This document shows, piece after piece, positions 44,279-46,491 of a DNA stretch of 64,000 nt. This stretch comes from Phyllobates terribilis (taxonomy: Eukaryota), in assembly GCF_046119375.1 (NCBI RefSeq), contig NW_027362770.1:194618001-194682000 (forward strand), given 5' to 3'. The translations under genes and the position numbers were made by a program. How positions within the stretch are numbered: the stretch's first letter is position 1; the number at the start of each line of letters is the position of its first letter. Under the pieces are notes generated by a model. That model saw only the letters and a program-made list of their open reading frames with translations. It made no database searches and was not told the origin of the DNA.

Positions 44279-44294
44279 GGCTCTTAGAAGAGCC
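44279..44294 (-). terminator. Histone 3' stem-loop of the H2A remnant
   Basis: Minus strand CCAAA-GGCTCT-TCTA-AGAGCC-ACCCAC, followed by HDE-like CAAGAGCCGG. Confidence 0.9.
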
Positions 44295-44331
44295 TTTGGT
44301 TGTGTGGATGATACAGGATCGGCTGCAGCGC

Positions 44332-44720
44332 TCACTTGCTCTTGCTCGCTTTGCTTGGCGACTTGCTGCTCTCGGTCTTCTTGGGCAGTAGCACGGCCTG
44401 GATGTTGGGCAGGACGCCCCCCTGGGCGATGGTCACCCCACCCAGCAACCTGTTCAGCTCCTCGTCATTGCGCACCGCCAGCTGCAGGTGCCGGGGGATG
44501 ATGCGGGTCTTCTTGTTGTCCCGGGCGGCATTGCCGGCCAATTCCAGGATCTCAGCGGTCAGATACTCCAGCACAGCGGCCAGATACTCCAGCACAGCGG
44601 CCAGATAGACCGGAGCGCCGGCGCCCACCCTCTCGGCGTAGTTGCCCTTGCGGAGAAGCCTGTGCACACGACCGACCGGGAACTGCAGTCCTGCCCGGGA
44701 TGAGCGGGTCTTGGCTTGGC
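44332..44720 (-). pseudogene. H2A: Histone H2A, 5'-truncated (no ATG, residues ~1-11 lost), with a 7-codon internal duplication
   Basis: [69 protein letters not shown]...LLPKKTES. Confidence 0.93.
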
Positions 44721-46491
44721 TGGTCGGGGCCACTTCTGGATGGCAGACAGTTTCTCAGGATCCATTTGTAGGCCGGTCTGAGAGATTATGTAGCCCAGAA
44801 ATGGAAGAGAGGTCTGCTCAAAGGTGCACTTCTCATATTTAGCGTAGAGGTGGTTCTGCCTGAGCCTGAGCAGGACCTGACGAACGTCCCTCCGGTGAGT
44901 CTGGAGATCCGGAGAGAAGACCAAGATGTCGTCCAGGTACACCACCACGCAGGAGTAGAGAAGGTCACGGAAGATGTCATTGACCAACTCTTGAAAGACG
45001 GCAGGAGCGTTACAGAGACCGAAGGGCATTACCAGGTATTCATAGTGGCCGTCCCGGGTGTTGAATGCCGTCTTCCACTCATCCCCCTGACGGATACGGA
45101 CCAGGTTATACGCCCCACGGAGATCCAGTTTGGTGAAGATTCTAGCCCCCCTCAGGCGGTCAAATAATTCAGGAATGAGCGGGAGGGGGTATTTATTCTT
45201 CACTGTAATCTGGTTAAGGCCTCTATAATCTATACATGGACGGAGTGAGCCGTCCTTCTTTTTGACGAAGAAGAAGCCTGCTCCCGCCGGGGAGGTAGAT
45301 TTCCGGATAAATCCCCGGGCCAGATTCTCCTCAATATACTCTGACATGGACCGGGTCTCCGCTGCGGACAAAGGGTTCAAAGTGCAGGGTGCACTGGTTT
45401 ATGAAGCCCCGAGCTTGAGCGGAGTCACCTCCGAAACGAGGAGGTGCAGAAAACCGGGGTCCGGGACAGGAAGCCATGGTATTGGTGGGCAGCGGCGCTG
45501 CCGGGTTGCGAGTCATGACACTAGCGGTGGTTGCAGGTGGAGCAGACAGAGTGTCCAGGCGAGAGTTGACACTCCGCAGGTGACTCAGGATGGACTCCTG
45601 TTGGGACCTCTGACGGGAGGGACAGTTCATGACATAGGTCCGAGAGCGAGGGAGCTTGGGTGCCACCGGATTCCATGGCCCGAGCAAACTGTAACGGGTC
45701 TGGGAGGTGGAACCTCTGAGCAACTATACAAGTGGGCGGTCCTTGTAAGGAAGCGGGTGGCTCCCAGGGGAGACGGGCAGGTAATCACGGCAAGTGACAG
45801 GGACAGTCTCTGGGTAGAAGGGCAGGTAGTCACGGCAAGTGACAGGGACAGTCTCTGGGTAGAAGGGCAGGTAGTCACGGCAAGTGACAGGGACAGTCTC
45901 TGGGTAGAAGGACGGGTACTCACGGCAAGTGACAGGGACAGTCTCTGGACAGGCAGGTGGTCACGGCTAGTGACGGCAGAGCCTCCAGGTAGGCTAGCAG
46001 GCAGGTAGCAGATGAGCGCTCCCTGGTGAGCAGACAAGAGTCTCTGGACAGGCAGGTGGTCACGGCAAGTGACGGCAGAGCCTCCAGGTAGGCTAGCAGG
46101 CAGGTAGCAGATGAGCGCTCCCAGGTGAGCGGGCAAGCTGGTCCATAGACAGACTGACAGGTGTCGGAAGGCAGACCGTCGGACCGCAGGCTTGCAAGCA
46201 GGTAAACGGATATCTGGCAGGTATCAAGCAGGAATCTGCCAGGTGACTGGCAGGTAACAGGCAGGAATCTGGCAGGTGACTGGAAACGGGACCTGAGGGC
46301 TGAAGCAGAGTGAAGGCTTTGCAACAACATTGCTCGGGCACCTCCATTTTGGAGGAGGTGCCTTATATATGGTGAGGTCCTCCGGCCATTGGCCATTGCC
46401 AGCAGAGCGGGAGGAGGACGCCGGGCACGGAGTGGAGAGGTGAGGGGAACAGCGTCCCTGCCTAGCAGGAGGCAGGGACGCCGACGCTACA
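44721..46491 (-). mobile_element. Internally deleted Gypsy/Ty3 LTR retrotransposon: 5' LTR (46491-45690), gag N-terminus, RT; RNaseH, integrase and 3' LTR missing
   Basis: LTR TGTAGC...GTTACA with CCAAT and TATATAA. gag motif [24 protein letters not shown] motifs [65 protein letters not shown] and YLDD. Confidence 0.93.

Follow-up and report, generated by a model that had tools for sequence, protein, structure and literature searches.

The locus analysed here lies in a 64,000-nucleotide stretch of Phyllobates terribilis DNA (hereafter the window), where the 5' part of an LTR retrotransposon runs into a histone H2A gene that has kept its stem-loop. An earlier note on this DNA had read it as a retroelement transcript with a histone 3' end. 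Is this chimera the source of such an RNA, or a product of the decay of a histone cluster?

A damaged copy of a large Ty3/Gypsy family

By inspection of the sequence, all the parts were found on the minus strand, in the order 5' LTR, gag stub, reverse transcriptase (RT), H2A, stop codon, stem-loop and HDE (Table 1). Every part that the earlier note had named is present: LTR, CCAAT and TATA boxes, gag ATG, stop-free RT with YLDD and a WPRP end, H2A, its stop codon, stem-loop and HDE. Two details of the join had to be adjusted. RT does end in WPRP and is joined directly to H2A, but the element match stops at 44720, with two extra nucleotides before H2A, and H2A starts at 44717, inside codon 14 (nucleotide 41 of 405) and not at about codon 12. 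In addition, we found a deletion of about 90 nt in U3, a frameshift in gag, a 21-nt duplication in H2A and a frame mismatch between RT and H2A, none of them in that note. Pfam matches in the window were RVT_1 and histone H2A.

Table 1. Coordinates of the features of the chimeric locus in the window
Feature	Position	Strand	Basis
5' LTR, 802 nt, TG...CA	45690..46491	-	alignment with both LTRs in 14 two-LTR siblings; next to it lies the PBS, no host DNA
U3 deletion junction	46394..46397	-	comparison with close siblings
CCAAT box (46392-46388) and TATA box (TATATAA, 46369-46363)	46362..46392	-	sequence; conserved in siblings
Predicted 5' end of LTR transcript, start ~46339, 30 nt past TATA; PBS complement	46330..46339	-	
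PBS, self-priming type	45678..45687	-	
gag stub, ATG at 45676	45375..45676	-	sequence
gag-RT deletion junction	45375..45376	-	sibling comparison
RT remnant, 218 codons, YLDD intact, ends WPRP	44720..45376	-	Pfam RVT_1, E 1.4e-35
2-nt insert at RT-H2A junction	44718..44719	-	
H2A remnant, codon 14 to stop (44334-44332)	44332..44717	-	
21-nt tandem duplication (YLAAVLE x2), H2A central helix	44553..44607	-	TRF
Histone stem-loop, then ACCCA; predicted cut after 44274	44279..44294	-	
HDE core AAGAGC	44256..44261	-	
Native H2A downstream flank	43886..44278	-	alignment with 4 neighbouring paralogs
32-bp satellite, 149 units	46492..51247		TRF

We searched the same genome for relatives of the element and obtained 1,483 candidate places for the LTR and 1,742 for RT, the best 40 of each being scored; the family is put at about 1,700 copies. 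Among 21 family loci examined, 14 carry two LTRs and measure 5.8-6.7 kb; the two LTRs of a copy, which run from TG to CA, are 96.5-99.7% identical, and 12 of these 14 copies are flanked by a 5-bp target duplication without mismatch. In the window copy, loss of the 3' end has made the duplication unreadable. The siblings also carry a G-rich tract upstream of the 3' LTR, and both siblings scanned with Pfam encode gag, protease, RVT_1, RT_RNaseH, rve, SH3_Tf2-1 and Chromo (the latter with E-values of 2e-12 and 1e-11); the domains downstream of RT are absent from the window copy.

The 10 nt that follow the LTR are the exact complement of its positions 46339-46330, the sole such site in the LTR, in 15 of the 17 copies with a 5' LTR, both misses being at one locus. 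No compensatory change in this 10-bp pair was seen. As the primer binding site (PBS) is complementary to the 5' end of the transcript, the start of transcription can be predicted from it. Self-priming of this kind is a mark of the Tf1/sushi group in fungi and vertebrates (PMC6317226, excerpt). With Tf1/sushi chromoviruses (for vertebrates the V-clade, i.e. Sushi-ichi and Amn-ichi/-ni/-san; Table 2 of the same excerpt) the siblings share their TG...CA LTRs and 5-bp target duplications, the order gag then PR-RT-RH-INT-chromodomain, and a PBS pairing with the transcript's own 5' end in place of a tRNA PBS, whereas only 1.77 kb remain of the window copy, and PR, RNase H, integrase, PPT and 3' LTR are missing from it. 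The best PDB match to the window RT is Ty3 RT (4ol8, E = 2e-46), and membership in the V-clade is putative. We assign the element to a large, self-priming family of chromodomain Ty3/Gypsy elements, of which it is a damaged copy. Another, two-LTR copy of this family lies 1.9-8.1 kb to the left of the window, with an RT 93% identical and stops in pol; it is 46 kb from the chimera, and candidates genome-wide are spaced at about one per 6 Mb, so that either chance or a preference for the cluster may have brought the two copies close together.

The window copy carries three deletions, in U3 (about 90 nt), from gag through PR to RT (about 1.26 kb) and from RT to H2A. The U3 block was lost directly upstream of the CCAAT box; it measures 81-94 nt in four of five close siblings, with a GC content of 73-74%, and 25 nt in the fifth. 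Two nucleotides inserted at this place make an 8-nt direct repeat. The second deletion, with a 2-nt microhomology, removes 1,247-1,262 nt relative to all five siblings compared, namely the rest of gag, protease and the start of RT. Downstream of RT, about 3.0-3.1 kb of the element are missing when compared with siblings. The RT remnant aligns with residues 78-285 of the 478 of Ty3 RT (4ol8); the remainder of the thumb, RNase H, integrase, PPT and 3' LTR are absent from this copy, which is therefore unable to move. Moreover, an early frameshift (a 4-nt indel relative to all 14 siblings) closes the gag ATG frame after 51 codons, and no Pfam match was found in the gag stub.

From the stop-free RT, the note had concluded that the element is young. 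The family is young indeed, but the same RT stretch is also free of stops in 18 of the 19 closest fetched siblings (of 40 listed), which makes the open frame uninformative; it would be no sign of selection. The window RT shows 8-14 differences over 654 nt from each of these 19 siblings (1.2-2.1%), and five of its changes are private (three non-synonymous and two synonymous), against a sibling mean of 1.7 (range 0-5). The window copy is thus among the older members of a young family. A footprint of methylation was also considered, as CpG transitions made up 10 of the 21 private RT changes in five siblings and none of the seven in the window copy; it was dropped after a wider test on 19 closer siblings (0 of 5 vs. 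3 of 32; p = 1).

The RT-H2A junction and its origin

The 2-nt insert at the RT-H2A junction creates a 7-nt direct repeat with the adjacent H2A sequence. At both junctions with an insert, the observed 2-mer is the one that gives the longest repeat among the 16 possible (7 and 8 nt), i.e. about 1 in 256 jointly, for a test chosen after seeing the junctions and bearing on two events only. A microhomology or a putative templated insert is found at all three deletion junctions (two inserts and one 2-nt microhomology). A short insert that, with its flank, repeats nearby sequence is the loop-out SD-MMEJ pattern (PMC2943611, excerpt). Our junctions resemble those of loop-out SD-MMEJ and Pol theta in combining a deletion with such an insert; they differ in number, being two, and Pol theta would be the enzyme presumed from their pattern.

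Read-derived data were searched as Logan contigs, for 4 runs out of 22. In the DNA run X1, one contig spans the RT-H2A join: it matches 44688-44747 (60 nt) with 0 differences and a depth of 12.9, insert included. Could the join nevertheless be an artefact of assembly, given that the cluster is repetitive and that the locus borders on a 4.8-kb satellite? We hold this to be highly improbable. The place is rich in repeats, the support comes from a single run, possibly made from the sample behind the assembly, and the contig reaches 30 and 28 letters to either side of the junction, short of a standard of 31, while another 16 of its letters are without a match; but mis-joins are not expected to give templated inserts at two junctions, and the match is exact. 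In the three other runs, X3 (DNA), X9 and X10 (guessed to be RNA, or of uncertain type), no listed contig crosses the RT-H2A junction, which is no evidence of absence since the filters drop records and rare variants. X3 and X10 have no cover in the bin on the H2A side, and 6,736 contig pieces are outside the listing. A loose end at 44720 continues as the normal element in X10, and another at 44717 continues as a normal H2A 5' end in X9. For the gag-RT junction, no listed contig piece lies across it in any of the four runs. The join is very probably real DNA in at least one animal.

We then considered the state of the H2A remnant. Its promoter and nucleotides 1-40 are missing. The H2A frame, open from 44751, contains no Met, and has a GTG at 44733; RT continues into H2A in another frame and meets a stop there at 44559. 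Except for the duplication, which is in-frame, adds seven residues and is carried by none of the 39 other H2A copies, the protein is identical to that of an intact neighbour. These 39 copies, the closest to the junction query, all have a 5' end of their own, 38 of them as judged by pattern and the remaining one with a small deletion, and 35 are intact. Relative to them the H2A remnant has one private change, which is synonymous. With fewer private changes in H2A than in RT, the join is probably younger than the insertion of the element. As it stands, the locus can make neither a retroelement nor a histone.

The H2A flank past the cleavage site aligns over about 393 nt with four neighbouring paralogs (e.g. 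366 of 423 columns). H2A is therefore a genomic gene in place, and the presence of DNA beyond the end of the mRNA argues for a join at the DNA level. This bears directly on a capture at the RNA level, in which RT would have switched template onto an H2A mRNA and the product would have been integrated. Such a scenario would account for the precise start of the LTR, for an RT adjoining host coding sequence and for internal deletions that look like template jumps. Yet H2A runs on through the HDE and some 390 nt of flank, unlike a mature mRNA; no 3' LTR or polypurine tract follows it; and the locus sits inside the histone cluster between native neighbours. Nor was a second copy seen: in the assembly, the window alone spans the RT-H2A junction among the best 40 of 109 candidate places, and the gag-RT junction among the best 40 of 1,603, these searches scoring the best candidates only. 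Capture of an mRNA appears largely refuted, above all by the flank, and we leave it a minimal probability.

On the other side, a satellite stops exactly where the LTR starts; it arose by expansion from the inner end of the right terminal inverted repeat in a Tc1-like element. Unexpanded relatives of the latter are about 1.1 kb long with inverted ends of about 110 bp; its interior and left end are absent from the window. In one relative, the same Tc1-like element holds a solo LTR; its site is different and it has a target duplication of its own, and a shared insertion was discarded. Likewise, a neighbour with H2A 15 kb from the same satellite was rejected as the pre-deletion paralog, its flank being different, and the right flank of the window proved to be a dispersed repeat. 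No paralog keeping the pre-deletion state was found among the neighbours and relatives compared, and for this reason we infer both the size of the deletion and its route.

Taken together, a damaged chromodomain Gypsy element adjoins, in a different reading frame, the 3' part of an H2A gene in its genomic place; the fusion probably goes back to a deletion that alternative end joining repaired, and the locus is probably a non-functional pseudogene. The element would have integrated into the Tc1-derived satellite upstream of the H2A gene, as its TG start exactly at the satellite edge suggests. A break would have removed about 3 kb of the element, the left part of the Tc1-like element, the H2A promoter and 13 codons; the missing parts were seen by comparison, and a single deletion is the presumed route. 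Limited templated synthesis at the break, for which the observed pattern would point to a Pol theta-type enzyme, may have left the 2-nt insert. Two further deletions, the gag frameshift and the H2A duplication would have accumulated, and any read-through from the LTR would be a by-product. Against this, the core promoter, the stem-loop and the HDE are undamaged and H2A has few changes; the undamaged signals and the single change in H2A fit a recent join, yet they are compatible with retention. Another counterpoint is that four rearrangements within 2 kb are many for a copy that is 1.2-2.1% from its siblings.

These several junctions in 2 kb, the failure to find a pre-deletion paralog and the shuffling and inversion of neighbouring histone units would also suit a more complex rearrangement (inversion, unequal exchange or replication template switching) by which the element came here from another place, within the cluster or beyond it. 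We regard it as very unlikely, because all the pieces have the orientation and order that simple deletions would leave and because the reciprocal pieces, a lone H2A 5' end or the 3' half of the element in satellite, were not seen in 264 kb.

The 3' end signals and the predicted RNA

The stem-loop scores 33.2 bits against Rfam RF00032, just below the cut-off of 34 bits (E = 3.8e-7), and 37 of the 39 other H2A copies have the same 16 nt. Stem-loop and HDE together are identical to those of the six nearest intact H2A copies. We found six U7 snRNA candidates in the genome, one on C5 and five within 155 kb on C3, and compared five of them. The HDE pairs with the 5' part of these candidates at -12.6 kcal/mol for four of the five and -9.3 kcal/mol for the fifth, the same as intact H2A. 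The Sm sites of the candidates differ from the vertebrate motif.

The predicted RNA is 2,066 nt long and contains 17 ATGs. The first-ATG frame stops 1,626 nt before the stem-loop and the RT frame 265 nt before it, while two short late frames stop at 160 nt. No strong splice acceptor was found near the junction, and splicing into the H2A frame was discarded, no acceptor-like site being present there. Transcription in S phase depends on histone promoters. The earlier note had predicted that an LTR-driven RNA would be processed by SLBP and U7 and be regulated in S phase. The first part is tenable: the LTR keeps CCAAT and TATA and, given the intact stem-loop and HDE and their pairing with U7, cleavage by U7 would plausibly occur if any RNA is made. 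The second part is contradicted by the deletion of the histone promoter and by the stop codons, every long ATG frame ending 265-1,626 nt before the stem-loop, and S-phase control of the chimeric RNA is therefore unlikely. Regulated decay of histone mRNAs needs a stem-loop near the stop codon (PMC12775136, excerpt).

The same deletion origin might thus be combined with an active LTR, giving a stable, non-polyadenylated retroelement-histone RNA of about 2.07 kb, cut by U7 after the stem-loop, with S-phase control optional. In favour of an RNA of this kind are the intact CCAAT, TATA and predicted start, the 3' signals shared with intact H2A genes and able to pair with U7 candidates, and the lack of a strong acceptor near the junction. 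A globin RNA made from a CMV promoter was also stabilised by a stem-loop, in a construct with a ribozyme at its end (PMC4456446, excerpt), and contigs of the family's LTR and RT occur in two runs, possibly of RNA. We nevertheless consider an active LTR unlikely. The GC-rich block of U3 has been deleted right at the CCAAT box, the first of 17 ATGs opens a frame that ends far from the stem-loop when decay control needs a nearby stop, and the promoter on which S-phase transcription depends is histone. A weaker point is an AATAAA in RT, at 45197, its codons being those of ordinary RT.

A bolder version has, in our view, slightly less probability still. The LTR would fire within the histone cluster and the 2.07-kb RNA, cut by U7 and bound by SLBP, would be a natural retroelement RNA with a histone 3' end; since it keeps the site for self-priming and the leader of gag, the family of about 1,700 copies could package it, and it could prime cDNA or small RNAs with H2A sequence. 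From a shorter RNA, the near-cognate GTG at 44733 could start a tail-swapped H2A.

LTR-driven chimeric host transcripts, known from LTR exaptation, likewise have an LTR promoter upstream of host sequence; here there is no splice and no host frame with a start codon, and the case is known from DNA alone. We found no published natural chimera of an LTR and a histone 3' end in open-licence PMC and bioRxiv (titles and beginnings of abstracts), which is weak evidence of absence. The nearest published link is the repression of LTR12 by U7 in human cells, which connects LTRs, CCAAT boxes and HDE-like motifs (PMC11417402, excerpt); there, U7 represses transcription and no chimeric RNA is cut. If expressed, the present locus would be a natural test of histone 3' signals behind a foreign promoter and a long untranslated body within a histone cluster. 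The function of such signals behind foreign promoters has so far been addressed with constructs.

Decay of the surrounding histone cluster

The window is part of a dispersed histone cluster and contains intact H1 (stem-loop at 35290) and H3 (36741) genes on the plus strand. With H1, H2A, H2B and H3 queries, we identified 20 histone loci in 264 kb around the window, of which 7 are truncated. Five of the 20 have lost the head of the gene and retained the stem-loop, namely the present H2A, two H3 and a pair of H1 with a common breakpoint, which makes four distinct breakpoints. The loci other than this H2A are at L040, L050 and L052. Decay in this part of the cluster has thus repeatedly left headless histone tails that follow foreign DNA.

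Histone pseudogenes arise by the birth-and-death turnover of vertebrate histone clusters. The present locus resembles them as a headless gene with an intact stem-loop among intact paralogs, with four other headless loci nearby, but its upstream partner is a sense LTR with a core promoter. In Drosophila, the element 297 is reportedly inserted in the TATA box of H3; there too a Gypsy-type element disrupts a histone gene in its cluster, but by insertion, whereas here a secondary join would have removed the head of the gene. The chimera is a real structure that reflects ordinary decay of a histone cluster, and a function is unlikely. As a relic it matters little, beyond showing how transposon insertion and end-joining deletion erode histone clusters in a 10.6-Gb genome.

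Several minor observations concern the same region. The headless H3 at L040 adjoins upstream DNA that is presumably the end of a DNA transposon. H2A loci outnumber H2B loci in the 264 kb (8 to 3), and no H4 gene was found among the 19 stem-loops in the 264 kb examined (parts of -80 kb to +280 kb from the window start). A decayed transposon (38500-43900), which we take to resemble hAT, separates H3 from the H2A remnant; nested in it is a Tc1-like element with 145-nt inverted ends (40441-40585 and 41947-42091). Further right, a non-LTR element (57271-61047, minus strand) encodes a GDSL-esterase-like ORF1, an endonuclease and an RT, and copies 97-99% identical to it lie 30 kb to the right and 95 kb to the left. 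Finally, a 36-bp satellite of 19 units behind H1 (35297-35984) consists of the amplified H1 3' signal (second stem arm, ACCAC and HDE), and related arrays of 0.6-2.7 kb occur in four places nearby (L043, L050, L051 and L052). Such a series of HDEs downstream of a histone gene might have an effect on cleavage or termination.
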